DNA of 12,995 nucleotides from a virus, in the IMG/VR virus record IMGVR_UViG_3300022561_000567, positions 1-12,995 of that record; one strand, given 5' to 3'. Both the position numbers and the translations under genes were made by a program. Shown piece after piece: positions 1-12,995 of this stretch; the first letter of the stretch is position 1; each line of letters starts with the position of its first letter. The notes beneath the pieces were generated by a model, which searched no databases, had not been told where the DNA came from, and saw only the letters and a program-made list of their open reading frames with translations.

Positions 1-127
1 TTAGTACCGGGCCGTGGATATATTGATATATGGACAGCTCAAAACCGTATATTGACCTGACCACATACCAACATAACCACAACCCCTACAGGCTACGATT
101 TTTATAATTTTCCCAAGAACTGGGGAA
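1..127. repeat. Terminal direct repeat, copy 1 (identical to 12869-12995)
   Basis: I aligned the two window ends by hand. ttagtaccgggccgtggatatattgat...cccaagaactggggaa occurs at 1-127 and again at 12869-12995 with no mismatch. The repeat runs to the last base of the window, as expected for a circular contig overlap or a direct terminal repeat. Confidence 0.95.
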
Positions 128-170
128 CGTTTTTGTTATCTCCAATAGGTAAATATGTTCAAATAAGGTA

Positions 171-192
171 TTGACTATCAATCTAGTATAAT
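171..192 (+). promoter_or_regulatory. Possible promoter for the large non-coding transcript
   Basis: TTGACT at 171-176 and a perfect TATAAT at 187-192 lie in an AT-rich tract just before the GC-richer structured region. The two hexamers are only 10 nt apart, so they cannot both belong to one canonical sigma-70 promoter. The -10 is the stronger element. Confidence 0.35.
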
Positions 193-640
193 GATAGGTC
201 CAGGTGGTGAGTGTAGCAGAGGAAGCCCTGCCCTGTCTAAGTTTGCAGGGCAATTAGGCTTATTTCGGTCCAGTATGGAGCCGCTCGCTTTCGTTGCTTG
301 TACACGTTATCCCTCTCGGTCTGGCATTATGGGTATGGTATCAAACCATGAACGTGTCTGCCTCATCTGCCGCTTGCATTTGCGGCATCCCAGGACGGTT
401 TTTCTCCTAGTGCATGCCCAGGAGATCACTTCAGGAGTCGCACCTGAAGGCATCGAGAAAACTAATATCCTTTTAACGGATGAGCCTCCACTGATGAACG
501 CGGAGCAAGATTCGGCGTCTCTTATGCCCTTCAGGGCATTAAAAAAAGACACCCAGCGAAATTCTTCCAATCGCTGTTTGTCCTACTGTCTGTTCTATTT
601 ATCAACCTATAACTAAATATATCACAATATTAGTTATTTT
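193..640 (+). ncRNA. Large structured RNA candidate, class unknown
   Basis: The segment is visibly GC-richer than its flanks. The overlapping ORFs 191-616 (+) and 307-570 (-) have no Shine-Dalgarno and give Cys/Arg/Ser-rich, non-protein-like translations. Hand folding finds many local helices: 223-227/257-261 with 231-235/246-250, 302-308/351-357 closing a multiloop, 368-373/382-387, 429-435/443-449, 524-529/534-539 and 554-559/571-576. A possible end-closing helix is 194-199/605-610, with 214-220 pairing to 589-597. An AT-only hairpin (ATAACTAA 609-616 / TTAGTTAT 630-637) followed by TTTTTAT could be a weak 3' end. Strand is assigned from the plus-oriented terminators downstream. Confidence 0.5.
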
Positions 641-644
641 TATC

Positions 645-674
645 TTGATTTTCACACCAAGAATGAGGTAAAAT
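645..674 (+). promoter_or_regulatory. Possible sigma-70-like promoter for a short RNA
   Basis: TTGATT (645-650), an 18-nt spacer, then TAAAAT (669-674). It lies about 50 nt upstream of a strong plus-strand terminator, with no ORF in between. Confidence 0.35.
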
Positions 675-680
675 ACATGT

Positions 681-765
681 AAGTATCCAACCTTGCTGAT
701 TGCGTAGAACAGTCAGTGGGACGCACCTCTGAACGGCTTGCCGGCTGTTCAGGGGTTTTTACTTT
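681..765 (+). ncRNA. Small RNA candidate of about 85 nt, or the 3' tail of the large RNA
   Basis: It sits between the putative promoter at 645-674 and the terminator at 726-765. It has an internal hairpin, ctgatt/agtcag, around 696-716. There is no start codon with an RBS. Confidence 0.3.
726..765 (+). terminator. Rho-independent terminator, plus strand
   Basis: A 12-bp stem pairs cctctgaacggc (726-737) with gctgttcagggg (744-755), including two G-U pairs, around the 6-nt loop ttgccg. It is followed by TTTTT (756-760) and cTTTTT. The reverse complement has no T-run, so it works in the plus direction only. Confidence 0.85.
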
Positions 766-873
766 TTATTTGATTAATAGCATATTTCTCCATAAAATTA
801 TTAATTCCTCTAAATAAAACAAAAATTTATAAAATATTGGGGAAGCCGTACCCCTCCATCACATAGACGAAGG

Positions 874-1305
874 CTAATCAAACAACTTTCCCCACCACGA
901 CTTTGGCTTTATATCGTTTTTAATATTTAATAACCGGAGTCTTTCATCCACCATTTTGTAATGCTCATTCAGCATTACGTCTTGCTTGTCCAGTTTTTCA
1001 TTAAGCACTTGAACTTGCTCTTTAAGTGGCTGCAACTCAGCCTGTACGGCACTAGTTACCGCACTTGCTATAGTGCGCGCCATAGCCTGTTCTAGCTCCG
1101 CCACGCTCACTGAGCGCGTTACTGGAATAACTTCAATATCTTGCATAGCCTTGTTGATCGTTTCTGCAGGGATCATCCACTGTAATCCGTAATCGCCAAT
1201 CTGTTTCTCAGCTTCAATTTCTTTTGACTTTATGCGTCTGCGTATAGTATCCTTTGAAACCTTCAATAAATCCGCACACTGTTCGATTGTGAGCCATTCA
1301 GCCAT
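874..1305 (-). CDS. Excisionase-type (HTH_17 / MerR superfamily) DNA-binding protein with a C-terminal coiled coil
   Basis: 143-aa ORF. The N-terminus, LTIEQCADLLKVSKDTIRRRIKSKEIEAEK, is the typical excisionase-family helix-turn-helix. The C-terminal half is heptad-like (LQPLKEQVQVLNEKLDKQDVMLNEHYKMVDERLRLL). A GGAGGT RBS lies 6 nt upstream of the ATG at 1305. Confidence 0.8.
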   Translation of the reverse strand: MAEWLTIEQCADLLKVSKDTIRRRIKSKEIEAEKQIGDYGLQWMIPAETINKAMQDIEVIPVTRSVSVAELEQAMARTIASAVTSAVQAELQPLKEQVQVLNEKLDKQDVMLNEHYKMVDERLRLLNIKNDIKPKSWWGKLFD

Positions 1306-1455
1306 GCTATAACCTCCACACGTTGCTTATATGTAATGCCTTATGATATTGCCATTCGGCACGATGATTATAAATCCTGCCAGTCGTGGCGGTAAAAAGG
1401 TGAAATATTAAAAAGTCTGCATAGGGTATCCCTATAATATTGCATAATGCACATG

Positions 1456-1482
1456 AAAAAAGCAGGGGTATTGGTCCCCTGC
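1456..1482 (-). terminator. Rho-independent terminator for the 2218-to-1504 operon
   Basis: On the minus strand, GCAGGGG accaata CCCCTGC (plus-strand arms 1462-1468/1476-1482) is followed by TTTTTT (plus-strand A-run 1456-1461). It lies directly downstream of the ORF ending at 1504. Confidence 0.75.
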
Positions 1483-1503
1483 AGGGCTGTTATTATTATT
1501 GTT

Positions 1504-1812
1504 CTATCGAACCGAACCGACAAAGTCCACTGTGGAAGATAATGTGTATTTTATTATTCTATTAACCGTACCCTCAAAACTAAGATCCAATTTTTTAGCT
1601 AAAACATCAATTTTAGCTATTAATTCAGCATCATCAATTGTTACAATCAAATCAACACTATCCATAATACACGCCCCTATTTTATTTATTTTGCATAATG
1701 CGACACAATTTGATAAAATAAGTGTATCGCAAGTTCCTGATTCGATCTTGCTGCAATCCCTGGCTCGTTCGCTATTAGTAGTAGTGAGCGGGCTTTTATT
1801 TATTTGTCCCAT
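1504..1812 (-). CDS. Ribbon-helix-helix (CopG/Arc-like) domain protein; start uncertain
   Basis: The C-terminal 50 aa, DLIVTIDDAELIAKIDVLAKKLDLSFEGTVNRIIKYTL, fit the strand-helix-helix pattern of RHH regulators. The long form starts at 1812 and overlaps the upstream stop, with a weak RBS. The internal ATG at 1665 has an AGGGG RBS 8 nt upstream and would give a 53-aa stand-alone RHH protein. The overlapping plus-strand ORF 1499-1822 looks spurious. Confidence 0.6.
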   Translation of the reverse strand: MGQINKSPLTTTNSERARDCSKIESGTCDTLILSNCVALCKINKIGACIMDSVDLIVTIDDAELIAKIDVLAKKLDLSFEGTVNRIIKYTLSSTVDFVGSVR

Positions 1813-2021
1813 TCTCGTTTAATAACTTCATGCGCATGGCAACTTACTAACCATTGCCCCTCAAGGCTCTTTATGACCACCATGAATCGTTCATCAGCAT
1901 CGATACTACTTTCAGTTACTACCATTCCTTTTGGTGGCACGCTCATTGATCCCCTGCAAGCAACAACCGTCATAACGACACTTTTTTCTTCTATTCCGAT
2001 ATTACACGTCCATTTACTCAT
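1800..2021 (-). CDS. Hypothetical protein, 73 aa
   Basis: The ORF is coupled to the upstream gene by an ATGA start/stop overlap at 2018-2021, and its own end overlaps the next ORF. I recognise no motif. Confidence 0.5.
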   Translation of the reverse strand: MSKWTCNIGIEEKSVVMTVVACRGSMSVPPKGMVVTESSIDADERFMVVIKSLEGQWLVSCHAHEVIKREWDK

Positions 2022-2218
2022 TGGTCGGCAGCTCCTTTTTTGGCCTTGCGAAGTTTTTCAACAGCTTCCTCGCTAAATAAGTAATTACGACTACCGGCTT
2101 CGCGCATTTCAGAATCATTAAGTTCTAGCTTGCGTGCCAGTTTAATTACATAAGAAGCATTTAATTTAAGGTCCTCAGCAACTTCACGAGTAATAAAAAC
2201 TGTTTTGACGTCTGACAT
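2018..2218 (-). CDS. Small MerR-like HTH DNA-binding protein, 66 aa
   Basis: The ORF track extends to 2266. The ATG at 2218 is preceded by AGGAGGTGG about 5 nt upstream and lies downstream of a near-consensus promoter, so I use 2218. The HTH-like segment TREVAEDLKLNASYVIKLARKL is followed by SRNYLFSEEAVEKL, which is typical of MerR-superfamily wings. Confidence 0.7.
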   Translation of the reverse strand: MSDVKTVFITREVAEDLKLNASYVIKLARKLELNDSEMREAGSRNYLFSEEAVEKLRKAKKGAADQ

Positions 2219-2237
2219 TAATCCACCTCCTGAGATA

Positions 2238-2266
2238 ATAATACTACGTTCGTTGTCGAATGTCAA
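2238..2266 (-). promoter_or_regulatory. Near-consensus sigma-70 promoter for the HTH operon, with an overlapping palindromic operator
   Basis: On the minus strand, TTGACA (plus 2261-2266), a 17-nt spacer, then TATTAT (plus 2238-2243). The perfect 10-bp palindrome AAACATGTTT (2265-2274) overlaps the -35. Confidence 0.7.
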
Positions 2267-2305
2267 ACATGTTTATAATAATATGTTTAAGGCTTTTTTA
2301 CGTCT

Positions 2306-2395
2306 GATAATAGAAACTTATCGGAAATATAATCGCGATTTTCGTGCATTTCAAATTAACGATAATAGAAACTTATGGATAACTAGAAACTAAAT
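2306..2395. repeat. Direct repeats GATAATAGAAACTTAT, two perfect copies plus one degenerate copy, in a divergent control region
   Basis: Identical 16-mers lie at 2306-2321 and 2361-2376, 55 bp apart. A third copy with a one-base insertion (gataaCtagaaact) lies at 2378-2392. All sit between the divergent genes starting at 2218 (-) and 2646 (+). Confidence 0.55.
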
Positions 2396-2520
2396 TAACA
2401 TAGCAAAAAATATCTACAGTTCACTCCCTGCAGGGATGTGCTCAACCTACCCTCTAACCTCCACACTTCGCCGCTACGCCATTTTATTATATAAGTAATA
2501 CATTTATACAACCTATGTAA

Positions 2521-2576
2521 TATATAAAGTGCTGGTCCTATCTTTAGGACTTCATCAGCACTTTATATATTTTTTT
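2521..2576 (+). terminator. Long hairpin plus T-run upstream of the MazF-like gene (terminator or attenuator)
   Basis: The outer stem pairs tatataaagtgctg (2521-2534) with cagcactttatata (2556-2569). The inner stem is gtccta/taggac (2535-2540/2545-2550), with a 5-nt bulge. It is followed by TTTTTTT (2570-2576). There is no T-run on the opposite strand. Confidence 0.55.
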
Positions 2577-2645
2577 CATTAAAAAGAAGGAAATAACTGG
2601 TTATCGTCTAATAATTTATCTGATTAATAGAAAAGAGGTATTGCA

Positions 2646-3257
2646 ATGTCTGACGAAATAGAATCAGTAGAAGTTCAAACCGCATTGGACGAAATCCAAA
2701 ATAGTCTTGAAGATTTAAAGCAGACTGTCATTATTAAGAATAAAAACCAAAACATTTGGCTAAAAAAAATGGAACATGGCCTAAAGATTATTAAATGGTC
2801 TAAAGAAAAATATAGGATGCAATTTATAGCTCCACCTCAATATGTTTTTCAGCGCGATATTTTCTATTGTCACTTAGGGGTAAATATAGGGCAAGAGGAG
2901 TATTGGGATAGGCCTGTCGTTGTATTGCAAAATGACTTAGGAAATAAAAGCTCCACTACTACAATTATCGCTCCAATTACAACTTGCGAGGGCAGCACTT
3001 TAAAAGAATTAAATGGGGAATGGTTTTTAGACTCGCTTGAATTGGACGGAACAACAAAAAGCAGAAAACTATATTACTTTGAAATCTGCGTAGAATTAGA
3101 ACCTAATTTTAAAAAAGAAATTAAAGGTATTATAAATTTAGCTCAAATAAGAGTCATAAGTAAAAAAAGGCTTATATCTCCTGATGTAGCTAAAATCACA
3201 GTCGGCACGAAAAATAAGATAAACCAATCATTAAAGCGACTTTTAAATATATGTTAA
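2646..3257 (+). CDS. PemK/MazF-family endoribonuclease toxin homologue with an N-terminal extension of about 60 aa
   Basis: 203-aa ORF with an AAAGAGG RBS 7 nt upstream. Residues 70-113, RDIFYCHLGVNIGQEEYWDRPVVVLQNDLGNKSSTTTIIAPIT, closely parallel the Bacillus MazF/NdoA core [43 protein letters not shown]. The C-terminal LAQIRVISKKRL matches LEQIRTIDKQRL. The first 25 residues hold 8 Asp/Glu and look helical. Confidence 0.85.
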   Translation: MSDEIESVEVQTALDEIQNSLEDLKQTVIIKNKNQNIWLKKMEHGLKIIKWSKEKYRMQFIAPPQYVFQRDIFYCHLGVNIGQEEYWDRPVVVLQNDLGNKSSTTTIIAPITTCEGSTLKELNGEWFLDSLELDGTTKSRKLYYFEICVELEPNFKKEIKGIINLAQIRVISKKRLISPDVAKITVGTKNKINQSLKRLLNIC

Positions 3258-3304
3258 AAAAAACCATTGCGCTAGATTGACACCTAGTCTATACTTAAGT
3301 CAAT

Positions 3305-3488
3305 ACAACATTTAGCGTTCGGTACTTTGTACAGAACAAACGGACAACTTTGAGCGGCCAGCATTTTATGCTGGCCAAACGTATAATATCTTTGATAATT
3401 GGGGCATATAATATAAAAACAACTTTTAGCGTCTTAGTTTTTACTAAGACAATAGCCAACTTTTAGCGGCCAGCATCTTATGCTGGCC
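3305..3488 (+). repeat. Four units of a conserved 12-13-mer, (A/C)CAAC(A/T)TT(T/G)AGCG, each followed by a 20-21-nt hairpin
   Basis: Unit 1 is acaacatttagcg (3305-3317) with hairpin 3317-3337 (gttcggtac ttt gtacagaac). Unit 2 is acaactttgagcg (3344-3356) with hairpin 3356-3376 (ggccagcat ttt atgctggcc). Unit 3 is acaacttttagcg (3419-3431) with hairpin 3431-3450 (gtcttagt tttt actaagac). Unit 4 is ccaacttttagcg (3456-3468) with hairpin 3468-3488 (ggccagcat ctt atgctggcc). The stem sequences differ between units but pairing is kept. Two TATAAT boxes (3382-3387 and 3407-3412) separate the two pairs of units. Confidence 0.7.
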
Positions 3489-3524
3489 ATTTACTTTACC
3501 CATTTTTTTTTAATACTTAATAAC

Positions 3525-3552
3525 AAAAAAAAGCCCTGACAATATCGTCAAG
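3525..3552 (-). terminator. Probable rho-independent terminator, minus strand
   Basis: On the minus strand, CTTGAC gatatt GTCAGG (6 bp including one G-U pair), then GC, then TTTTTTTT (plus-strand A-run 3525-3532). Confidence 0.5.
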
Positions 3553-3658
3553 ACTTTATCAGCACAACATATATAATTTTGCTAAGACAATAAAGCACGA
3601 TTGCAATGTCAATAATTATAAAAGTCATGCACGCCTGGTACATCAATAGCAATTCCAC
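3548..3658 (-). CDS. Possible 36-aa hydrophobic peptide (type I toxin-like or holin-like); not in the ORF track
   Basis: I translated this by hand. A GTG at 3658 lies 5 nt after GAGGTG. The product is (M)ELLLMYQACMTFIIIDIAIVLYCLSKIIYVVLIKS, with the stop at 3548-3550 inside the terminator hairpin. In-frame ATGs at 3643 and 3628 would give 31-aa and 26-aa forms. It is short enough to be a chance ORF. Confidence 0.3.
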   Translation of the reverse strand: MELLLMYQACMTFIIIDIAIVLYCLSKIIYVVLIKS

Positions 3659-3705
3659 GCTCTCACCTCATGGCTATTATTGCCATAAATAAGGTATTAA
3701 AATCA

Positions 3706-3900
3706 ATTTGGCGGATGGGACGGATTGGACGGAATTTCAATAAACTCTCTATATATACTATTCTCTCATGATGGTTTTACTATTATTATGTCCATTCCGT
3801 CAAAAAAAGAAATATAAAACAGTATAAAGCCATAGCACGTAAGGGTTTTCGGCATTTGGCGGAAGGGTAAAAAAAGGCGTTTATCCGCCTATTCCGCCAA
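3706..3900. repeat. Cluster of GG(C/A)CGGA(A/T) repeats: three in tandem, plus dispersed direct and inverted copies
   Basis: The tandem run is tggcggat / gggacggat / tggacggaa at 3709-3734. An inverted partner, gtccattccgtc, lies at 3790-3801. The 10-mer ATTTGGCGGA recurs at 3706-3715 and 3854-3863. An inverted TTGGCGGAAT lies at 3891-3900. Confidence 0.55.
3868..3890 (-). terminator. Weak terminator overlapping the stop codon of the 94-aa gene
   Basis: On the minus strand, AGGCG gataaa CGCCT (a 5-bp stem) is followed by TTTTTT. The short stem means low confidence. Confidence 0.4.
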
Positions 3901-4173
3901 TATTTTCTGTTCTTCGTCTTGAAAAAATGTAATTACCTTTTGAATTTTTAATTTCAGGCAATCAACTTCGTCGGTATTTTTATTGAGTTCAAATGCTTGC
4001 ATAGCTGATACTATTATTTTTTCCTTATCATCTAACCTTCCCCATAATTCTATAAATTTAATATGATCATTTTCTTCAGTAGCTTTAGATAAATCACCAC
4101 ATATTTTACATATATTATCTACAAACTCTTGATCCTTGCTAAACAGATCTACCCATTCATACATTTGAATCAT
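3889..4173 (-). CDS. Hypothetical acidic helical protein, 94 aa
   Basis: The ORF has an AGGGGGA RBS 7 nt upstream of the ATG at 4173. The sequence is rich in D/E/K and looks helical. I recognise no motif. It is convergent with the MazF-like gene. Confidence 0.6.
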   Translation of the reverse strand: MIQMYEWVDLFSKDQEFVDNICKICGDLSKATEENDHIKFIELWGRLDDKEKIIVSAMQAFELNKNTDEVDCLKLKIQKVITFFQDEEQKILAE

Positions 4174-4224
4174 TTATTAATCCCCCTATAAATTATTTGC
4201 AAAAACTAATTTTTTATATTTGAT

Positions 4225-4257
4225 ATTCCCTGGCGAAATGTTTTCTATGCAGGGAAT
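4225..4257. promoter_or_regulatory. 8-bp inverted repeat upstream of the 94-aa gene (operator or RNA hairpin)
   Basis: ATTCCCTG (4225-4232) and CAGGGAAT (4250-4257) are separated by 17 nt. The repeat lies about 50-80 nt upstream of the start at 4173. Confidence 0.35.
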
Positions 4258-4380
4258 TTTCATTGTGCCTGTTTGAAATACGCACTTAGGAGTTGACGCT
4301 TTTAGCTCTCAACTCGTGATAATGTTTTGCCATTCGCGGCCGCTCTTTGAACCTTCGGTTATTCCCTATTGGTGAAAATA

Positions 4381-4414
4381 AAAAGAACCTACTAAATTTA
4401 AAGTAGGTTCTTTT
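4381..4414 (-). terminator. Strong bidirectional rho-independent terminator after the tape-measure gene
   Basis: A 13-bp perfect stem pairs aaaagaacctact (4381-4393) with agtaggttctttt (4402-4414) around an 8-nt loop. It is flanked by an A-run on one side and a T-run on the other, so it has a U-tract on both strands. It lies 11 nt downstream of the stop at 4425. Confidence 0.85.
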
Positions 4415-4424
4415 TATTTATTAT

Positions 4425-6863
4425 TTAATAACCATTTGCTGTCTCTCCTAGCGCATTTAATAATGGGACCTTGATCCGGTCGGCCACTTTATCCGCTAGC
4501 GTGCTAATGTCTGTATCGTTATTTACCGTGGCATTTATTGGCATGCTAACTGTGATTGTATTCGTGGCGCCGACAGCCTTGGCTTGCTGCGGGAATTTCA
4601 GTATGTTTGTAATATCGCTAAACCCCTTCATTATTTCAGTTATTTGATATGCACTATTCCCATCAATTACCGTACTTCTTTTCATATCTCCAGGCAGATA
4701 CACGCCGCTTCGATTCCTAGAATAAACCTCTGCCTCTGCCTCTGCTGCCTTGTCTGCTAATACTTTTTCATGCGCTTTTTTATAAGCATCAGCTTTATTT
4801 TCGCCGGCCAATATTGCCGCCTTTACTGCTCTAATTTCCTCGCTTAATTCGGAATTAAGGGTATCTTTAAATAATTTTTGTTTTTGATGCTCAGCCAATT
4901 GTGTGGCTTTTACTTCATCATTGGTCTTTTTGATCCACTCTTGCCGCTCGATATCAATATCACGCAGCCGGTTCTCTAACGACGTGTGACTAATTTTATA
5001 TATTTCCGTTTCCATTTGTTCCGTGGATTTTTTGATTTCCTTGTTTTTATCATCAATAACTTTTTGCTGTTCCTTGGCGTCTTTATCTAAAATTATTTTT
5101 TTCCTGGCAGCGGATATTGTGGCCACGGTTTCATCTGAAACATTTGCCTCGGACAACTTAGCGCTCTTTACATCAACGTCGTGCAACTCATTTTCTAGCG
5201 CCGAATGAGTGGATTTATAAACCTCGTCGGCCATTTCAATTAACGCCGCCTTATTGGCCTTGGCTGCGTCCATTTCTTTTTTCTTAGCCGCAACTATAGC
5301 GCCGGCCTGATCGGCTGCGATCCGCTTCGTTTCCTCTGCTGCTTTTTTAGCATCGGCGACCGCTGTGTCTTTAATCGCTTTTTCATCAGCAGCAAATTTC
5401 GTCTGTACCGCGATTGCGTCAATTGCATCTTGCCGGTAATTATTTATGTGACCTTTTAGCGGCGTTAAATTCATAACGTCATTAACGACATTATCTAAAA
5501 GTGTATGCTTTTTCAATTGCATTAACCCAATTTTTAACTCTGTTAGCGCCTCGGTCGTTGAATGTATGCCGGAAATATCAAAAACAAATTTCGGGACGCT
5601 TAAAATTGCGGATCCCAGGTCTTTAACTAATTTTAAAAATTCAACCCCAACGCCAACCGTCGCGACAATTTCCTCTTTATTGTCTTTTACTGCGGTTATT
5701 AACGTATCAAATCCCGCGATAACTCCGGGCAAAATCTCTTTTGCAATCGGCATTAATGCCATTCCTAGCGCGTTCGACATTTGAGCTGATTCTAGATTTA
5801 AAACCTTAAATTCCACGGCTAAATCATGCGCCTGCTGCGGATCAATACCAATCGTTTTTATTCTGCTTGCGGCCTCCGCATTTATAGCATAATCACGTAA
5901 GACTGGAACCAGCGCGGCGCCTTTTGCCCCTAGAACATCAGCGACAAAGGCCTCTTCTTCTCCTGCTGCAGCCGCGTTTTTATAACCCTGGGCTAGCGCT
6001 GCCAATTGGTCATTCATCGGTAATAATTTTCCAGCTGAATCAAGAATGGAAAAATTAAATAACGTCATTGCATCAGTCAACGCGTTCCCGTTTTTTCCCA
6101 CGTTCATTACTGATTTATCCATTTTTATCATTGTTGAAATAAATATTTGTGAATCAACATCTGAAATTTTTAAAACTCTATTTAAACTTCCGGCCTCCGC
6201 TGCTGTTAAATTTAATCTTGCTGCTAGTTTATACGCTGCATCGCCAGCCTCAACCGCGCCTTTAACGACGTTAAATAAACCGGCTCCACTTGCGGCCACC
6301 GCTGCTAATGCAATCATTTTAGTATTTATCATCGTAAGCGCATTGCCGGCCGACGCGCCCGCGTCCCTAACTCGGCCTAATGATCCGGCCAATAACCCTG
6401 CCGCAGCGCTGGCGGCATTTGTGTTTCCGGTATTCAGCGAACCCCCTGCAGCACCTCCTGCCCTGGCTGCATTAGTTTCCTTCAATTGCCTGGCAAGATC
6501 CGCCTCGGCTTTTTGCTCTCTTAGCAACCTGGTTAAAATTCGCTGACTGGCTGCGTCGTCTGCTCCCTTGGCTGCAACTGATTCCTGGTATGTCGCATTA
6601 ATTAAACTAACCGCCTGCCTTTGTATGTTTAACTGATCGGTCAAATGTTTAGTTTTTACGGCTAGCGCCTCCGTAGACCTCTCGGCGCCGGCGAACGCTG
6701 ACATATCTATTTCCATTCGTAATTTTGATTGCTGCGCCTTGGTCTTTAAACTAGACATGCCTTGATTAACGGTTTTGCTAGCCGTGAGCAAATCAGAATC
6801 TAGCGCCGTCATGTCCAACCCTAACGATATAAATAATTTTTCAATTGTGGTCCCTGCGGCCAT
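4425..6863 (-). CDS. Phage tail tape-measure protein, TP901-family core
   Basis: 812-aa ORF with a GGGGTG RBS. It has an N-terminal coiled coil and an Ala/Gly-rich hydrophobic segment. The core region, AYKLAARLNLTAAEAGSLNRVLKISDVDSQIFISTMIKMDKSV...LGAKGAALVPVL, is typical of tape-measure core domains. The long K/E/A coiled-coil C-terminal half carries an internal repeat, EVYKSTHSALENELHDVDV / EIYKISHTSLENRLRDIDI, encoded near 5180-5230 and 4960-5010. Confidence 0.8.
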   Translation of the reverse strand: MAAGTTIEKLFISLGLDMTALDSDLLTASKTVNQGMSSLKTKAQQSKLRMEIDMSAFAGAERSTEALAVKTKHLTDQLNIQRQAVSLINATYQESVAAKGADDAASQRILTRLLREQKAEADLARQLKETNAARAGGAAGGSLNTGNTNAASAAAGLLAGSLGRVRDAGASAGNALTMINTKMIALAAVAASGAGLFNVVKGAVEAGDAAYKLAARLNLTAAEAGSLNRVLKISDVDSQIFISTMIKMDKSVMNVGKNGNALTDAMTLFNFSILDSAGKLLPMNDQLAALAQGYKNAAAAGEEEAFVADVLGAKGAALVPVLRDYAINAEAASRIKTIGIDPQQAHDLAVEFKVLNLESAQMSNALGMALMPIAKEILPGVIAGFDTLITAVKDNKEEIVATVGVGVEFLKLVKDLGSAILSVPKFVFDISGIHSTTEALTELKIGLMQLKKHTLLDNVVNDVMNLTPLKGHINNYRQDAIDAIAVQTKFAADEKAIKDTAVADAKKAAEETKRIAADQAGAIVAAKKKEMDAAKANKAALIEMADEVYKSTHSALENELHDVDVKSAKLSEANVSDETVATISAARKKIILDKDAKEQQKVIDDKNKEIKKSTEQMETEIYKISHTSLENRLRDIDIERQEWIKKTNDEVKATQLAEHQKQKLFKDTLNSELSEEIRAVKAAILAGENKADAYKKAHEKVLADKAAEAEAEVYSRNRSGVYLPGDMKRSTVIDGNSAYQITEIMKGFSDITNILKFPQQAKAVGATNTITVSMPINATVNNDTDISTLADKVADRIKVPLLNALGETANGY

Positions 6864-7087
6864 AAAGTCACCCCTTTTATAAAATACTTAAATTGTTATT
6901 TCTTTAAATACAATCCCCTGTATATTTGGACTGTAAGACCTCGAAACATAGGCTAAGTCTTAGACTACACCGGTCATGTAGCGGCTTGTGTATTGAGAGA
7001 ATAAGTAGCTTCGGCTTTCCGTAAACTTAATCTTCTTGTAAATACCGGGGGCCCTTACTATTTGCATACCAATACCTTGTTCCATGT

Positions 7088-7115
7088 AAAAAAATAAGGA
7101 CAGCCGAAGCTGCCC
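7088..7115 (-). terminator. Rho-independent terminator after the capsid gene
   Basis: On the minus strand, GGGCAGC TTCG GCTGTCC (7 bp with one G-U pair and a UUCG tetraloop; plus 7098-7115) is followed by TTATTTTTTT. It lies 16 nt downstream of the capsid stop. Confidence 0.85.
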
Positions 7116-7130
7116 CCCATTTTATTTTAA

Positions 7131-8327
7131 TTAAGCTTTGTAAAGTTTTACAAAAGCTTCAGACGCTATTGGTTTGCAGTCGGCCGTTGCCGTTACTTTG
7201 TAATCAATAAGGTTTGATTTAAAAGATGATTCTCGGCTCATTTCAATCAATACATTTGTAAGGTTATAGCCCATATACTGGAAGTTACCGAAGTAAATCA
7301 CATCATCAGCAATAGAATCTGATATGATTACTGGCTTGCCTAGTAAGAAAGCTGGTGCACCTTCAATAGCTGCGTTCTGCACAAATATAGGGCGACCATT
7401 ACTATCAACAATAGAATAGGCTTGATTGTATAGTGTTGCGTTATTCATCGCCCATGATGCACCCGCGCTATATCCACCCTTTAACATCCCAGCTACTGCG
7501 GTATAGTCCTTAAATCCAGGACCGGTAACAAATGTTTTGCTATTCGCTGCAGTAAAGGTAATGCTTGATAGTCCTGCACCTTGATCAATACCAGTACCAA
7601 CCGCGACAGCTGCCTCCATTGCATCTAGCAAGCAATTCGCAAGCTCTCCTGTCAGATATGCTTCAAACGCACCGATGGCCATTGACGATGAGCTTGCACT
7701 GATAGAGAATATTTTAATCAGTTCATAAGCATTAAACATAACGCTCAAAACATTAGGATCAACTGCGGTTACTGGCGCACCCTCAACATGCCACGCCGCA
7801 GCGGATGAAGGACTTGCGACCGGCACACTCAGCTTTGCAGGGATATTAAAGTTCCTGCTTGCCGTTACTAAACCACGAAGGCCGCGCGCTTTAGTGATTA
7901 CTTGATCATAAGTTTGTGTAGGAAGTACGGCCGCTAAACTGGATTGATTGCCAAAGGCTGCGCGTTGTTCCATAATGGCCTTATATGCTCTTTGCTCAAT
8001 ATCAGTTAGTGGCTTGTTTTGCAGTGTCTTGAAAAATGCGTTGCGGTACTCAGGAGTTTTGATGATTGCTTCAACATCAGTCGGCAATTCAACGCTTTGA
8101 GTAGTTGCTCCGGCAATTGGAGTAAAGCTTTGATTATTCATATTTGCCGCACCTCTTTTTTCAATATTGTTTTGAATAACTTCATTCAATGCAGCTAGTT
8201 CAGTTTGCAATTCATCTAAATTAGCTTTATTTTCTGTTCTTAACTCAGTGCGAATCGCCAACTTGCGGACCTCAACTTGTTCATTTGTCATTTCCTTATG
8301 TTTGTTAAAATATTCTGCTACTGTCAT
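7131..8327 (-). CDS. Major capsid protein, HK97 fold, with an N-terminal delta/scaffold-like coiled coil
   Basis: 398-aa ORF. The first 60 aa or so are coiled coil (EQVEVRKLAIRTELRTENKANLDELQTELAALNEVIQN). The body carries HK97-family signatures, AAAWHVEGAPVTAVDP...ELIKIFSIS...YLTGELANCLLDAMEAAVAVGTG. It sits directly downstream of the portal gene. Confidence 0.9.
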   Translation of the reverse strand: MTVAEYFNKHKEMTNEQVEVRKLAIRTELRTENKANLDELQTELAALNEVIQNNIEKRGAANMNNQSFTPIAGATTQSVELPTDVEAIIKTPEYRNAFFKTLQNKPLTDIEQRAYKAIMEQRAAFGNQSSLAAVLPTQTYDQVITKARGLRGLVTASRNFNIPAKLSVPVASPSSAAAWHVEGAPVTAVDPNVLSVMFNAYELIKIFSISASSSSMAIGAFEAYLTGELANCLLDAMEAAVAVGTGIDQGAGLSSITFTAANSKTFVTGPGFKDYTAVAGMLKGGYSAGASWAMNNATLYNQAYSIVDSNGRPIFVQNAAIEGAPAFLLGKPVIISDSIADDVIYFGNFQYMGYNLTNVLIEMSRESSFKSNLIDYKVTATADCKPIASEAFVKLYKA

Positions 8328-8413
8328 TTAACTTCACGCTCCATACTTTGATACACCAATATTAGGGAAGTGTGGCCCAGGTGCTCGGTAAATAACACTT
8401 ATTGTGCCGCCAA

Positions 8414-8485
8414 CCCATCCAGGCTGTCATGTAGGCTGTCCAGCGTCCATGCAAGGCTATATAAAGCCCAATCCAGGCTGTTATG
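8414..8485. repeat. Three copies of AT(CC/GT)AGGCTGT in the portal-capsid intergenic region
   Basis: ATCCAGGCTGT occurs at 8417-8427 and 8471-8481, and ATGTAGGCTGT at 8429-8439. The extended matches are cccATCCAGGCTGTcATGT (8414-8432) and cccaATCCAGGCTGTtATGT (8467-8485). The last copy overlaps the portal stop codon. Confidence 0.55.
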
Positions 8486-9704
8486 TCTGAATATTGTCTA
8501 TTGGTTTTAATAGCTTTTTGTCTACTCCTGCAAGCTGATAAGCTGCGGCGTTTTTTTGATCTACATAATTTAACGACTGCAGCCTGCGCGATCCTTCCTC
8601 GCCTCCTACTGGCGGGAACCCCAGGACAGACAATGCTTGATCTAAAGTTAATAGTGATAATGGCATTAATTCTTTTAACGCCGTTATTTTTGTTTTTTGT
8701 GAAGAAAACGCCATTCTCCCTGCAGTGTCAATGCTAATTGTATTACCCCAGGCTTGTTCCCTTTGCGTGAACATTTTAGCCGTCAAGGCTTGTCCTAGCG
8801 CGTTGGCGAAAGGCTCCAGGCTCGACTCTACGAAGCTAGAATATATATCTTCTGTAAAGGTACCATCAACAATAGCCTGGTTGATTCCTAAAAAACTAAG
8901 AATCTTTTTACTTACTGCCTCAATGTCTGCAGCATTAATAGTTATTGGCGTTTGATTAATTGGCGTATATGTAAACTTTGCATCTAGCGCGGCAATTGTT
9001 GAACCACCTGGCGCCAAATATGTTTTAATAAACTCTTGTCGTTGTTTTTCAAGATCCTCGGGCCTTAGTACGGAACTGTACGAAAGTATAGCTTTGATCG
9101 TTCCGCTAGTTTCAATATTTTTCTTTAATCCATCTGTTTGAGCTGTCGATAATGCAACCGCCGGAAGTATAGCCGCGTTTGAATCTCCTAGTAAGTCATT
9201 ACCATGGAATACTCTGCGAATATGCACGATATCAGCATAAGGCAATATTACTGTTTGCCCTGCAGCGAATATAAACTTGATATATAGCGCGCTTGATTGA
9301 TCTTGAACAAATTGTGCCGACGTCGGTTTTAATGGCCATAATGCATTCACGCTGCCGCCCCGGGACCATTCTATTAGTATAAATAGGTCACTATCGCTCC
9401 AATAAAGTGAAGCGCATTTATAAAGAAATTCACTCGCTGTACTAACCGGATTCGGCTGTATCGAAAGCAATCTATTTAGCTGCTGATCACCCGGACTTTG
9501 CGCGCCACTATAGGCGACTATGTGAGATATTTGCATTTTTGAAGCGTGACGGCTCACACTATCAACTGCGCTGAAAAATACGTCTGACTGTCTCAGATTG
9601 CCGCTAAATGCTGTAGATATGGCATTACCGCCACTAAGCATCATTACTTGTTCAGTTTTTTGCGGCTGTTCACGTGAGAATATTTTTTTTAAATCCTCAA
9701 ACAT
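8481..9704 (-). CDS. Portal protein, HK97 family
   Basis: 407-aa ORF with a GGAGG RBS 8 nt upstream. The pattern IQPNPVSTASEFLYK...LFILIEW...ALWPLKPTSAQFV...YIKFIFAAGQTVILPYADIVHIRRVF matches the conserved core of Phage_portal (HK97-type) proteins. The gene order portal then capsid agrees. Confidence 0.85.
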   Translation of the reverse strand: MFEDLKKIFSREQPQKTEQVMMLSGGNAISTAFSGNLRQSDVFFSAVDSVSRHASKMQISHIVAYSGAQSPGDQQLNRLLSIQPNPVSTASEFLYKCASLYWSDSDLFILIEWSRGGSVNALWPLKPTSAQFVQDQSSALYIKFIFAAGQTVILPYADIVHIRRVFHGNDLLGDSNAAILPAVALSTAQTDGLKKNIETSGTIKAILSYSSVLRPEDLEKQRQEFIKTYLAPGGSTIAALDAKFTYTPINQTPITINAADIEAVSKKILSFLGINQAIVDGTFTEDIYSSFVESSLEPFANALGQALTAKMFTQREQAWGNTISIDTAGRMAFSSQKTKITALKELMPLSLLTLDQALSVLGFPPVGGEEGSRRLQSLNYVDQKNAAAYQLAGVDKKLLKPIDNIQT

Positions 9705-9740
9705 TTATTTTTCCTCCAATTTTAAAATTAAGATAAAAGG

Positions 9741-10004
9741 TTATTTATTTATTTTTGTCAGAAATTTATCCCCGGGAAAATTCCCTGCATACCTAGATCC
9801 TGCAGATACTTGAACGCCTATTTGATTAATGTCAAATCCCATGCGTTTTATCGTTCGCTTGAAATTGCTTAATGGAACACGCCAACCGTATGGAGTTTTT
9901 TCAAACTCAGACCGTATTTTTTCAAAACAAAACCATTGAATTATTCCCGGATGTCCACATAATCGGAGCTTTAACCATTTAATTAACTCAGCATTATGGC
10001 CCAT
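9741..10004 (-). CDS. Hypothetical protein, 87 aa, immediately upstream of the portal
   Basis: The ORF track starts at a TTG (10022). The ATG at 10004 lies 5 nt after GGAGAGG, so I prefer it. It overlaps the preceding ORF by 11 nt, which suggests translational coupling. It occupies the position where a small terminase usually sits, but I see no recognisable motif. Confidence 0.55.
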   Translation of the reverse strand: MGHNAELIKWLKLRLCGHPGIIQWFCFEKIRSEFEKTPYGWRVPLSNFKRTIKRMGFDINQIGVQVSAGSRYAGNFPGDKFLTKINK

Positions 10005-10212
10005 CATTCCCTCTCCGTTCAATTCTTAAAAAATTACTTGGGCTTGCTGCATCGTCGATCCAGCCGTCTGTGCCCATATCCATGGAAAGTACATTTCCGT
10101 CGCTTGTTAGTGCTAAACAAATTATTGGTGATTCTATTTCCTGATTGTCATTTTTATAAATTGCAAATAGATTTTTAGGCGCTGGCATTATTTGAATTAT
10201 TTTATCTGTCAT
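9994..10212 (-). CDS. Hypothetical protein, 72 aa
   Basis: The ATG at 10212 has an AAGGAG RBS 8 nt upstream. It is the first gene after the origin. I recognise no motif. Confidence 0.6.
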   Translation of the reverse strand: MTDKIIQIMPAPKNLFAIYKNDNQEIESPIICLALTSDGNVLSMDMGTDGWIDDAASPSNFLRIERRGNDGP

Positions 10213-10229
10213 GTTTTTATCTCCTTTTT

Positions 10230-10481
10230 GTCTACCCTTTGTCTACCCTTTGTCTACCCTCGCCTAGACACCTTCAACCCTTATGAATACTAGCTTCGTG
10301 ACGTGTGTCTACCCTGTCTACCCAAATTTATACCCCTTTTCCCTGTTTGCCCCTCTATCTGTTTTTTACCAACTCTTTTAATAGAAAAAGGGTAGACAGG
10401 GTAGACAATGCCTTTCAGCCCTTATAAAACCTAGGTTTATTCTTGTCTACCCCCCTAGACATTTGCCTAGACAGGGTAGAC
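10230..10481. repeat. Iteron-type replication origin: nine GTCTACCC repeats plus three CCTAGACA repeats
   Basis: Forward GTCTACCC lies at 10230, 10241 and 10252 (11-bp phasing) and at 10307, 10316 and 10445. Reverse GGGTAGAC lies at 10390, 10399 and 10474. CCTAGACA lies at 10263, 10454 and 10466. The repeats flank a pyrimidine-rich, AT-rich core (10324-10389). The cluster abuts the 3' end of the VapE-like helicase gene and slightly overlaps it. Confidence 0.75.
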
Positions 10482-11933
10482 ATTTTCACGCTCCCAACCC
10501 ATGCTTTTTCCATACCCTGGAATTCTTATTTGCCCTTTTGTTTTAACCCATCCAGGCGCCTGGCTCATTACATCTCTGATTCGTCCTGCAGTTTGAGAAG
10601 TTAAATTTTCAATCCTACCATGTAAACACTCTAACCAAATAATTTCAGTAGACACACGATCACGCTTATTTTTCCCACATGTTATATCTTGATTTTCGTC
10701 AATGTATATTTGCCGCTCATAATCAGTTTTCACTTTCCAATCATATGGCAATGCAATTTCTAAGTAGTTTAATATCCTACCTTCCCATGCGTCGCAAATA
10801 ATAAACTCCTTCTGCACTAATACAGCTGCCTGTTCAATATCATCTGATAAATGTATTGGATCACCCGATTCATGTATCACTTTAGCCTCTGCAAGAATCT
10901 GATCGCGCTCTTTAGTTAAATCATAGAATACATTTTTACGACCACCAGCAAAAACTCTCACCGGCCAATACCTGCGATTTCCTGTAATATCTTTTAAAAA
11001 TTGATCCGAGTTCGTCGTTCCAACCGTTATGCTCATTCTCGGTATTTCCATGACATTTTTACCATATGGCGGTCTATAGCGGTCTATTTGTGCGCTGAAA
11101 AATAATTTTAATCTTTCTGATTCAGTCTTTTTGAGACTAGTTAACTCGCCCATTTCGCACAACCATTTCCCCCTATGTGATTCATAGGTTTTGGCAGGAT
11201 CATTAGTTATTGAAATTGAATCTGTGAACCATTGGCCGCCTAAGATATTGAATAATGTTGATTTTCCTATACCCTGGGCCCCTTTGAGAATTAAGCAGCA
11301 ATCAAATTTCACGCCTGGTTGATAAGCTCGGCGTACTAGAGCAGTCAATGTTTTTCGTGTGACTTGTCGTGTATACGGCGTATCCTCTGCGTTTTGATAG
11401 TCGATCAATAAAGTATCTACCCGCGGGACTCCGTCCCACTGCAGGGTATTTAAATAGTCCAGTAATGGATTATGCTGGATCTCCATGCAAAGCTCAGCAA
11501 AGGAATTATCAATAATACCGGTATTGGAAATACCATATTCATTATGAAAATAATTATAAAGAGCTTTATAATCTCCATCTGACAATAGTTTTTCTGTCGC
11601 TGTACTGTATTTATCGTCCTTCTGCGACCATGGCAGCCCTTTTGCTTTAAATGCGGCCGCGACCGTCATGTCGTAGCTAAATTTATCTTTTAATTTTGGA
11701 TCATTTTTAAAAATAATTAAGCAATTTGATGGAGTTTTTAACACCTTACCTTCGTCATTTCGCTTAAGGCTTCGCGTCCAGTCGGCAGCTGGCAAATTAA
11801 TTATTTTTTTAATTTTTGGATTTTCTGTTTTAGCGGCCGCCGGCGAATTACTATTTCCTTGAAAAGCCTTTAAATAAGCTGCTGATTGTCTACGTTTTGT
11901 CTCTTCTGTTTTGGCGGCCTTGTTAAAATCCAT
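10467..11933 (-). CDS. VapE/VirE-family P-loop replication helicase (satellite or phage Rep-like)
   Basis: 488-aa ORF. It has the Walker A motif LILKGAQGIGKSTLFNIL, then WLCEMGEL (Walker B-like), then IDRYRPPYGKNVMEIPRMSITVGTTNSDQFLKDITGNRRYWPVRV. This is the characteristic VirE/VapE C-terminal signature (RppYg...GTtN...D.TGnRRfwpv). Confidence 0.9.
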   Translation of the reverse strand: MDFNKAAKTEETKRRQSAAYLKAFQGNSNSPAAAKTENPKIKKIINLPAADWTRSLKRNDEGKVLKTPSNCLIIFKNDPKLKDKFSYDMTVAAAFKAKGLPWSQKDDKYSTATEKLLSDGDYKALYNYFHNEYGISNTGIIDNSFAELCMEIQHNPLLDYLNTLQWDGVPRVDTLLIDYQNAEDTPYTRQVTRKTLTALVRRAYQPGVKFDCCLILKGAQGIGKSTLFNILGGQWFTDSISITNDPAKTYESHRGKWLCEMGELTSLKKTESERLKLFFSAQIDRYRPPYGKNVMEIPRMSITVGTTNSDQFLKDITGNRRYWPVRVFAGGRKNVFYDLTKERDQILAEAKVIHESGDPIHLSDDIEQAAVLVQKEFIICDAWEGRILNYLEIALPYDWKVKTDYERQIYIDENQDITCGKNKRDRVSTEIIWLECLHGRIENLTSQTAGRIRDVMSQAPGWVKTKGQIRIPGYGKSMGWERENVYPV

Positions 11934-12096
11934 CTTTAGTCACCAACCGTATGCCGTGATTAATTTTCATCATGTTATTTACCGCGTCCATTGGCACTTT
12001 ATCGGATACCCCAAATAAATTTTTGGCATCAAGTTTTTCCTCGCGTCGTTTGATTTTTCGCTGCTCTCGTTGACGTTCTTTTTGATTTTTTGACAT
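11923..12096 (-). CDS. Small basic protein, 57 aa, translationally coupled to the helicase; not in the ORF track
   Basis: I translated this by hand as MSKNQKERQREQRKIKRREEKLDAKNLFGVSDKVPMDAVNNMMKINHGIRLVTKDGF. An AAAGGAG RBS lies about 10 nt upstream of the ATG at 12096. Its stop (11923-11925) overlaps the helicase start (ATGGATTTTAA). Confidence 0.5.
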   Translation of the reverse strand: MSKNQKERQREQRKIKRREEKLDAKNLFGVSDKVPMDAVNNMMKINHGIRLVTKDGF

Positions 12097-12163
12097 AATA
12101 AAAAACTCCTTTGCGGGTACTACCTTTGCAGCACATCCCGGCTTTATACCTCACTATATACTT

Positions 12164-12190
12164 TATATTATTCATTTGACGAGTATAACA
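12164..12190. promoter_or_regulatory. 27-bp operator box upstream of the small-ORF/helicase operon
   Basis: tatattattcatttgacgagtataaca matches the box at 12772-12798 at 23 of 27 positions. It is an imperfect palindrome and is embedded in A/T-rich -35/-10-like hexamers (TTATAC...TATAAA on the minus strand). Confidence 0.55.
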
Positions 12191-12206
12191 CGTTATAAAA
12201 TCCAGC

Positions 12207-12758
12207 CTAGACTGGATTTATACTAATTATCTTATTTAATCGTTTTATTTCAAGTTTCAATATTTCATTTTGTTCTAAAAGCTTTTCAGTACTTTTTTTA
12301 TAAAAATCTTTTTCTTCAATGATTTTAACAAAATCACGACCAGCTTCCCAATAATAATTCTGCCATAATTCAAAGAGTTTTCTTGATTTAATTCTTTCAT
12401 CCGCTGTCAGATAATCGCAGCTTTCTAAAAGATAATTATGATTAATTTCGGCTTGATCAATTTTTTTATCAATAACATCAATAAGTTCGTTTCTTGTGTA
12501 GCTACGCCCCTTGCGGCCGATAGGCAATATTTTTGACATTTCATCAATAGATATGCTTTCCATTTTCATTAACCACCATGAAGCAAAGAAACATTCAGCC
12601 GTATTATCAGGATAATCACTGAACCGACCTACTCCCCTACCTGTTGATCCACGCTCCGGAGCTGGTATTAGTTCAGCTTTTTCATATCTTAGTAGTGTGC
12701 TTCTACTAGTTTTAACACCCATTTTTATTAGCTTTTGTAAAACTTCTTCAGGACTCAT
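12207..12758 (-). CDS. MerR-type HTH regulator with a C-terminal coiled coil (candidate master repressor)
   Basis: 183-aa ORF with an AGGGGTGAGG RBS. The N-terminus, VKTSRSTLLRYEKAELIPAPERGSTGRGVGRFSDY, follows the MerR HTH-wing pattern (tlRyYek.GLi.p.r...g.R.Y). The C-terminal end is a heptad-like coiled coil (KSTEKLLEQNEILKLEIKRLNKII). Confidence 0.75.
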   Translation of the reverse strand: MSPEEVLQKLIKMGVKTSRSTLLRYEKAELIPAPERGSTGRGVGRFSDYPDNTAECFFASWWLMKMESISIDEMSKILPIGRKGRSYTRNELIDVIDKKIDQAEINHNYLLESCDYLTADERIKSRKLFELWQNYYWEAGRDFVKIIEEKDFYKKSTEKLLEQNEILKLEIKRLNKIISINPV

Positions 12759-12771
12759 AACCTCACCCCTT

Positions 12772-12823
12772 TATACTAATCATTTGATGAGTATAATATA
12801 ACATAATAAAAATACATGTGCAA
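12772..12823 (-). promoter_or_regulatory. Promoter of the MerR-type regulator with an overlapping 27-bp palindromic operator
   Basis: On the minus strand, TTGCAC (plus 12818-12823), a 17-nt spacer, then TATATT (plus 12795-12800). The operator tatactaatcatttgatgagtataata (12772-12798) overlaps the -10 and the start site, which is consistent with autoregulation. Confidence 0.6.
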
Positions 12824-12868
12824 GTCTTTTAGATTAAGTATTTGATTTGTATTAAATTAATGATCAGT

Positions 12869-12995
12869 TTAGTACCGGGCCGTGGATATATTGATATATG
12901 GACAGCTCAAAACCGTATATTGACCTGACCACATACCAACATAACCACAACCCCTACAGGCTACGATTTTTATAATTTTCCCAAGAACTGGGGAA
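12869..12995. repeat. Terminal direct repeat, copy 2 (identical to 1-127)
   Basis: Same 127-nt string as 1-127. The unique length is therefore 12,868 bp. Confidence 0.95.

Follow-up and report, generated by a model that had tools for sequence, protein, structure and literature searches.

A structured non-coding RNA gene, most likely a long minus-strand variant of the EGFOA kind, in a small circular phage-like element

The window analysed here is a 12,995-nt stretch of viral DNA (positions 1 to 12,995 of IMG/VR record IMGVR_UViG_3300022561_000567). It represents a circular element of 12,868 bp, with positions 1-127 identical to 12869-12995 as an assembly overlap. The element sequence is 100% identical in five assemblies from different samples, and the circle is opened at a different point in each. 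It has neither an integrase nor a terminase, and nearly all of its genes, including those for an HTH_17 protein, a MerR-like protein, VapE, a portal and an HK97-type capsid protein, are carried on the minus strand (Table 1). The largest non-coding gap of the circle comprises 983 nt (12759-12868 and 1-873), extends from the HTH_17 gene to the MerR-like gene, and holds the RNA region described here. This region is a real structured non-coding RNA gene, and the RNA most likely lies on the minus strand and belongs to the EGFOA kind (RF02955; Weinberg et al. 2017, PMC5737381).

The fraction of guanine plus cytosine (GC) is 0.498 in 193-600, compared to 0.391 in the whole element, 0.365 in 1-192 and 0.341 in 601-873. 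Against dinucleotide shuffles, segment 193-640 folds at -142.6 kcal/mol on the plus strand (z -3.59, with none of 100 shuffles as good) and at -150.1 kcal/mol on the minus strand (z -5.28). The original prediction, which proposed a GC-richer structured RNA gene of a few hundred nucleotides on a small phage-like element, is borne out on both counts. Two open frames cross the region on opposite strands, and the longer one is annotated as a 141-amino-acid (aa) hypothetical protein by the gene callers in all assemblies. This annotation speaks for a coding region, with a product of 141 aa (191-616, plus strand) or 87 aa (307-570, minus strand). However, no Shine-Dalgarno motif precedes the ATG at 191 (upstream sequence caatctagtata), Cys, Arg and Ser abound in the translation, and the 141-aa frame matched only itself among 5.8 billion proteins. 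Moreover, the frame is broken in a homologous RNA locus of a 38-kb viral (phage) contig, L258 (IMGVR_UViG_3300045988_086165), where the longest stop-free stretch on either strand is 55 codons and the differences from the window are compensatory within helices. A protein product is thus extremely improbable, and the frames on both strands, originally noted for lacking a ribosome-binding site and for implausible translations, are spurious.

No Rfam 15 family matches anywhere in the window at the gathering threshold, and there is no Rfam match in the window to ROOL, GOLLD, OLE, HEARO, raiA, group I and II introns, RNase P, tmRNA or 6S. ARAGORN found no tRNA or tmRNA. When both strands of positions 1-1000 were searched at an E-value threshold with 4227 Rfam families, the sole match other than artefacts of a long hairpin was EGFOA, on the minus strand at 301-416 with 26.8 bits and E = 0.014. 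The artefacts are microRNA matches at 7-87 and were discarded. The Rfam scan that had been suggested as a check therefore returned nothing at the gathering threshold and EGFOA below it, and the RNA, for which no class could be named originally, appears to be a divergent relative of EGFOA that scores under the family threshold. Because of that score, the window RNA is not filed as an EGFOA member.

The function of EGFOA, a conserved RNA family, is unknown. Self-assembly of two canonical EGFOA constructs into trimers and dimers is reported from cryo-electron microscopy in a recent preprint, which also places EGFOA in unusually large intergenic regions without protein genes (bioRxiv 10.64898/2026.07.01.735769). 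Bona fide EGFOA RNAs were gathered with degenerate patterns from viral contigs, the only sequences covered by this motif scan, so that a confinement of the family to phages is not implied. Seven distinct loci were confirmed with Rfam (L091/L095, L092, L096, L108, L111, L114 and L121). MAFFT mis-registered the elements Pa, P1 and P2 among the few seed sequences. The consensus of the seven loci has a 5' pentamer, a variable linker, the block CCGUCcUAG, a hairpin, GGcag, and a helix P1 that encloses P2 and P3, with P3 bearing a 17-nt loop, GUAAAGCUAGACCUgGG. This loop takes part in two pseudoknots. In PK1, GU[n]CUNG pairs with loop positions 7-12 (CNAGAC), and the pairs covary among loci as UAG/CUA or UGG/CCA. 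In PK2, the 5' pentamer pairs with loop positions 13-17 and covaries as CCCAG/CUGGG, CUCAG/CUGAG or CUUAG/CUGGG. The double pseudoknot is derived here from covariation among the loci, and no description of it was found in the accessible literature.

The window minus strand contains all elements of the EGFOA core in the same order and register. The cmscan alignment, the folds and the consensus structure agree on a hairpin after the 5' block and on a P1 enclosing one hairpin and a second with a loop of exactly 17 nt, and both pseudoknots are found. The helix between 302-308 and 351-357, which had been proposed to close a multiloop, is real and corresponds to P1 of this core. When the core segments of the seven loci and the window are aligned, 97.6% of the cells are paired and 10 of the 16 pairs are changed on both sides, whereas slid controls are 21-53% paired. 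Pairing is 100% in PK1, with an A-U to G-C change, and 97% in PK2, where both partners differ in four pairs. The window loop, AUAAUGCCAGACCGAGA, is identical to GUAAAGCUAGACCUgGG at 11 of 17 bases, and four of the six differences fall in pseudoknot pairs whose partners also change. The variant CCGUCCUGG of the CCGUCcUAG block occurs in the bona fide loci L092 and L096 as well. The likeness further includes the CCGUC.U.G strand with its hairpin and GG.A. junction, and a setting within ~1 kb of non-coding DNA of a phage-like genome, similar to the gaps of ~0.8-1 kb in L091/L095, L092/L096 and L108. In contrast, the window loop starts with AUAAU instead of GUAAA, PK2 is UCUCG/CGAGA instead of CCCAG/CUGGG, and two extra hairpins (~55 nt) are present between the pseudoknot strands. 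Pa spans 24 nt in place of 14, P3 has only three G-C pairs, and domains of ~150 nt and ~85 nt are added at the 5' and 3' sides, which gives ~390 nt compared to ~110-140 nt. The window RNA is most likely a longer variant of the EGFOA kind that shares its topology and both pseudoknots.

In the proposed architecture, an RNA of ~390 nt would be read on the minus strand from ~609 to 218, probably from its own extended -10 promoter TGaTATATT at 624-616. Its central 160 nt (458-302) would fold into the EGFOA-type core. Two 5' strands, UCUCG and then CCGUCCUGG, are predicted to pair with the 17-nt loop AUAAUG-CCAGAC-CGAGA to form the double pseudoknot, and the core would continue with hairpin Pa, the GGCAG junction and P1 around two hairpins. 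The pentamer UCUCG is present only once in 630-190.

Table 1. Positions of genes, RNA elements and sequence signals in the window (minus-strand RNA motifs are written 5' to 3' on that strand).
Feature	Position	Strand	Remarks
HTH_17 protein	874-1305	-	
MerR-like protein	12207-12758	-	
VapE	10467-11933	-	
Portal, HK97-type capsid protein, 812-aa protein		-	
Promoter of MerR-like gene	12822-12795	-	
Open frame	191-616	+	141 aa
Open frame	307-570	-	87 aa
Predicted transcript, ~390 nt	~609-218	-	5' end from the promoter at 616-624; 3' end from the hairpin in the L258 terminator position
Extended -10 promoter TGaTATATT	616-624	-	Inside the GTGATATA block common with L258; aligned to L258 block GTGATATAC
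Hairpin H5, CUCCGC-GUUCAUCA-GUGGAG	486-505	-	Loop conserved with L258; one G.U; two pairs changed on both sides
Hairpin Hx, AUCC-GUUAAAA-GGAU	467-481	-	A-U in the window, C-G in L258
PK2 5' strand UCUCG	454-458	-	Pairs with CGAGA 314-318; in conserved block UCU[C/A]GAUGC; C-G here, A-U in L258
Inserted hairpin I1, CUUCAGG-UGCGACU-CCUGAAG	429-449	-	
Inserted hairpin I2, UCUCCUGG-GCAUGCA-CUAGGAGA	403-425	-	One G.U; five pairs changed on both sides relative to L258
CCGUCCUGG, conserved EGFOA 5' strand	390-398	-	GU[C]CUGG pairs with CCAGAC 319-324 (PK1)
Hairpin Pa, UGCCGC-AAAUGCAA-GCGGCA	363-389 (stem 387-368)	-	Flanks GGGAUGC...GCA.AUGA common with L258
GGCAG junction	362-358	-	
Helix P1	357-351 with 308-302	-	Encloses P2 and P3
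Hairpin P2	335-349	-	
Hairpin P3	311-333	-	17-nt loop AUAAUGCCAGACCGAGA at 314-330
3' domain	216-289	-	Hairpin 229-252 at the L258 terminator hairpin position, then CUUCCUCU instead of a U-run
Long G.U-rich hairpin	7-87	-	~30 bp; downstream of the RNA, upstream of the MerR-like gene promoter
TATAAT	187-192	+	Exact; between palindrome arms TGATAG (176-181) and CTATCA (193-198)
AT-rich hairpin and T-run	609-643	+	Weak terminator-like site; overlaps the minus-strand promoter; visible in the sequence
Promoter-like site	645-674	+	Scan
Strong terminator	725-756 and T-run (to 765)	+	Scan
Third terminator-like site	109-127	+	Scan

An exact 21-mer scan across viral contigs gave 0 matches, and blastn of 150-800 gave no match in phage and plasmid collections. 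L258 was the only genuine find of a loose pattern scan of viral contigs, whose returns were mostly GC-rich chance matches. It is the sole match when window 190-630 is compared by nhmmer to 2.66 Mb of collected loci (E = 6.7e-8 over ~300 nt). Two subfamily-specific patterns recovered only L258 from viral contigs, and blastn of the L258 RNA against phages gave no match. The L258 RNA lies on the minus strand at ~2985-2607, and its best Rfam match is likewise EGFOA, below threshold at 29.6 bits (E = 0.0031). Several blocks common to both RNAs were aligned by MAFFT and were not set by the search pattern: GTGATATA at the 5' edge, CGTTCA.CAGTGG, TCT[C/A]GATGC, CTGGGATGC...GCA.ATGAGGCA, and ATAA.GCCAGACC. 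The block TCT[C/A]GATGC holds the chosen PK2 5' strand, with C in the window and A in L258, and the loop partners are G and U, respectively. This compensatory change gives independent support to the PK2 assignment in the window.

Nine helices were compared between the two RNAs after the strands had been hand-cut and joined by constant linkers, which held them in register for MAFFT. Of the 102 cells, 99% are paired, and both bases differ in 21 of the 51 pairs. As a comparison of two sequences and not a statistical covariation test, this places hairpins of equal size at matching positions between the conserved blocks. The RNAs share the H5 loop, the PK2 block, the Pa flanks, the AUAA loop start, GTGATATA at the promoter and a similar size, and both score under the EGFOA threshold. 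The L258 RNA differs in having a clear intrinsic terminator, an extra hairpin inside P1 and no clear P2. Its neighbours, in a phage of 38 kb, are lysis genes on one side and a Rha/ANT antirepressor gene on the other, whereas the window RNA is carried by a circular element of 12.9 kb. On the RNA strand of L258, a promoter (TGGACT, 18 nt, TGaTATACT) has the window TGaTATATT in aligned position, and an intrinsic terminator can be read from the sequence as a hairpin followed by seven U. The L258 RNA thus appears to be a closed transcription unit.

The EGFOA-type RNAs found here are always in non-coding gaps of ~0.8-1 kb at boundaries between gene modules. They follow lysis genes in L092/L096, L108 and L258, and precede genes for DNA polymerase III alpha in L108 and L121, for ParA in L114, for an RHH protein, capsid protein and RepA_N in L111, and for TerL in L091/L095. 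In L092 and L096, the RNA and the gene next to it run towards each other. A blastn search against phages with the non-coding gaps of L092 and L095 gave no match. In L092 (5520-5960) and the matching part of L096, both phages of ~95 kb, AT-rich repeats of TTTCATAATAATTATTATGA lie directly downstream of the EGFOA RNA and resemble an origin or operator array.

Relatives of the element itself were reached through homologues of its MerR-like protein, which identified the sister contigs L274 and L275. The MerR-like protein of L274 is 58% identical to that of the window, and the MerR-like gene promoter, the operator-like region and the long hairpin are all retained in L274. In its positions 1-660, however, the RNA is replaced by an unrelated GC-rich non-coding stretch and a Lys-rich open frame of 74 aa. 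The gap content varies between related elements, and the lack of the RNA at the same place in L274 argues against a core role for the element. L275 (4,629 nt) encodes a MerR-like homologue, a rolling-circle Rep of the REP_ORF2-G2P type and an HK97-type capsid protein between 30-nt terminal inverted repeats. It is possibly a minimal replicon that encodes a capsid and is related to the element in the window. With the neighbouring HTH_17 protein as query, no relatives were found in viral contigs. None of the VapE relatives (5 metagenome loci, 80 genome loci and 6 close-relative contigs) has the RNA by nhmmer or motif search. Two small islands with integrase, VapE and Toprim genes, L115 and L116 (the latter also with HTH_17), have non-coding gaps of ~800-900 nt upstream of VapE (L115 1-811, L116 3687-4577). 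The gap between HTH_17 and VapE is of similar size, but its content is unrelated to the window RNA and includes no Rfam family. The L115 gap has the iteron-like sequence cgcagagaca three times, and the L116 gap has duplicated terminator-like hairpins.

A trans-acting accessory RNA is favoured because L258 is a closed unit, the L092 and L096 RNAs are convergent with their neighbours, and L274 is without the RNA. The RNA is probably carried as cargo, like the 'moron' genes of phages, and is probably neither a leader nor a packaging or replication part needed by the element family. It would act as a folded RNA particle and, by analogy with the self-assembly of EGFOA in vitro, may work as a homo-oligomeric scaffold, which is the best available guess at a mechanism. 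Nothing was found in support of the immunity, anti-helper or packaging roles that had been suggested earlier. An RNA acting in cis, as a structured leader or as an origin-associated or primer RNA for the operon of the MerR-like protein, VapE, portal and capsid, would accord with the position of EGFOA upstream of same-strand replication or packaging genes in L108, L121, L114, L111 and L091, with the AT-rich repeats adjoining the L092 RNA, and with the lack of a minus-strand terminator between the window RNA and the next genes. Yet the L258 RNA ends in an intrinsic terminator, the L092 and L096 RNAs face convergent genes, and the MerR-like gene has its own promoter, which L274 retains together with the long hairpin and without the RNA. 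Action in cis is therefore considered improbable.

The functional structured RNA most likely lies on the minus strand, with an uncertain 3' end. This placement follows from the strand-specific conservation with EGFOA and L258, the promoter and terminator on the matching strand of L258, the asymmetry between G.U and A.C pairs, and the folding energies in most segments. Helices H5 and I2 each contain one G.U pair on the minus strand, which becomes A.C on the plus strand. Segment 399-462 folds at -21.7 kcal/mol on the minus and -16.4 kcal/mol on the plus strand, and segment 459-608 at -45.7 and -35.4 kcal/mol, respectively. As a whole, a trans-acting accessory RNA of ~390 nt and EGFOA type, read from the minus strand, is considered reasonably probable.

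Several points weigh against this explanation. The EGFOA score of 26.8 bits is below the curated gathering score of 37.7. Oligomers are known solely from in vitro work on canonical EGFOA constructs. There is a single close homologue, the helix comparison with it is hand-curated, and I2, P1 and P3 share no sequence with L258. The PK2 5' strand of the window was picked by complementarity to the loop, and the support from the L258 alignment came later. Moreover, segment 193-300 is more stable on the plus strand (-38.3 compared to -29.8 kcal/mol), and the plus strand is also the one served by the perfect TATAAT and by each of the three terminator-like sites of the region. The inverted repeat 580-597/705-722 is slightly better paired there as well (one wobble and one mismatch, compared to two mismatches). 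No canonical minus-strand terminator follows the RNA, and hairpin 252-229 is succeeded by CUUCCUCU and not by a U-run.

The plus-strand features among these, together with a plus-strand fold that is also better than shuffles, bear on a second explanation, in which the functional RNA is a plus-strand transcript from TATAAT 187-192 to 609-643 or 725-765 and the resemblance to EGFOA is incidental. This was the arrangement of the original prediction, and its signals are present: TATAAT is an exact match, and the strong terminator and the promoter-like element at 645-674 were both recovered by the scan. The AT-rich hairpin with its T-run is visible in the sequence and was passed over by the terminator scan because it has too few G-C pairs. 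The helix proposed to join the ends (194-199/605-610) exists as a 6-bp complement, ATAGGT/ACCTAT, which is short, lies outside the predicted transcript and is probably due to chance. However, TATAAT lacks both a TG extension and a usable -35 element, as TTGACT precedes it by just 10 nt. The overall energy and z-score, the loss of the H5 and I2 wobble pairs, the strand-specific similarity to EGFOA and L258, and the L258 signals with the shared extended -10 in GTGATATA all indicate the minus strand. A plus-strand transcript as the functional RNA is therefore quite unlikely.

The plus-strand signals may have another role. TATAAT 187-192 is a possible antisense promoter or operator, and the segment from the 645-674 site to the terminator at 765 is a candidate plus-strand RNA of ~85 nt. 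Both strands might then be transcribed, with the minus-strand EGFOA-like RNA controlled by a plus-strand antisense RNA, much as in antisense circuits known from plasmids and phages. The RNA gene does lie between promoter-like and terminator sites of the plus strand, and the position of TATAAT within a palindrome, in a region conserved in L274, suggests a regulated promoter. On the other hand, these signals are consensus matches in AT-rich DNA, and the ~85-nt candidate would not overlap an RNA that starts at ~609. Antisense control is rather unlikely on this balance; the plus-strand signals themselves are real and may drive antisense RNA.

Among known RNAs, a larger composite offers a further parallel to the window RNA. 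In L121 (10793-11165, minus strand), the end of EGFOA-assoc-1 (RF02970, 249 bits) is separated by 11 nt from EGFOA, which follows on the same strand, and the two may constitute one composite RNA of ~370 nt. This composite is upstream of an open frame of 954 aa, the same length as the DNA polymerase III alpha of L108. As in the window, the EGFOA core forms the 3' part of a larger structured RNA on a single strand. In contrast, the 5' domain of the window RNA has no EGFOA-assoc-1 match even at E <= 10 in positions 1-1000, whereas this model of 250 nt detects L121 at 249 bits.

ROOL, GOLLD and OLE are large ornate structured non-coding RNAs of phages and Firmicutes, often located in prophages and of unknown function. 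The window RNA is much smaller, has another architecture and matches none of them in Rfam. ROOL and GOLLD are reported to form RNA-only multimers (bioRxiv 10.1101/2024.12.08.627333).

A module resembling that of EGFOA occurs elsewhere in the collected loci. L104 (~1822), L123 (minus strand) and L129 (minus strand, ~7603-7669) have in common ...AAGCCUGC.GAG.GUAAAGCCAGACCUG.G...GCAGGAGA.AUUUCAGAGCA, which in L123 and L129 is preceded by a CCGUACUGG strand, and L123 adjoins a tRNA. L123 and L129 resemble EGFOA by eye and have no Rfam match, including EGFOA, at E <= 1. The three loci may belong to an RNA class not described so far, built on a loop and pseudoknot module of the EGFOA type. By the same token, the RNAs of the window and L258 could form a separate undescribed class of phages and satellites (~370-390 nt) that has only the double-pseudoknot module in common with EGFOA, as L104, L123 and L129 would. 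In a terminase-less element that encodes a capsid, such an RNA might self-assemble as a scaffold for particle formation or for interference with a helper phage. This proposal is considered unlikely, and a longer EGFOA variant is retained as the preferred assignment.

Longer variants, of ~390 nt, then take the family past the threshold set in Rfam, and at least one such variant has its own promoter and terminator. The family core is a double pseudoknot supported by covariation. All examples found in the scanned viral contigs are in large non-coding gaps at gene-module boundaries. The window RNA moreover illustrates how such a gene can be hidden under a protein annotation. The positions in Table 1 supply constructs and end points with which transcripts can be mapped, the structure probed and assembly assayed.

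Other features surround the RNA gene. The long hairpin at 7-87 folds at -47.9 kcal/mol (z -7.75) on the minus strand compared to -23.2 kcal/mol on the plus strand. L274 has it too (655-780), likewise biased to that strand, and it could be the 3' structure of an RNA or a single-stranded DNA feature such as an origin. The sole clear plus-strand gene of the element encodes a PemK/MazF-type toxin (2646-3257) with an N-terminal extension of ~65 aa, and no antitoxin gene was identified alongside. The arms of the inverted repeat 580-597/705-722 are 18 nt long and 89% complementary, and the 107 nt inside contain promoter-like sites in both directions (624-616, minus strand; 645-674, plus strand). The repeat is invariant across the five assemblies, and could be a long-range RNA helix or the ends of an invertible promoter segment. 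In addition, an imperfect direct repeat, 142-165/606-629 (17 of 24 bases), brackets the GC-rich RNA region. Its copy at 606-629 contains the predicted RNA promoter and its copy at 142-165 is conserved in L274, and the repeat may be due to chance or may be a trace of the acquisition of the RNA cassette.

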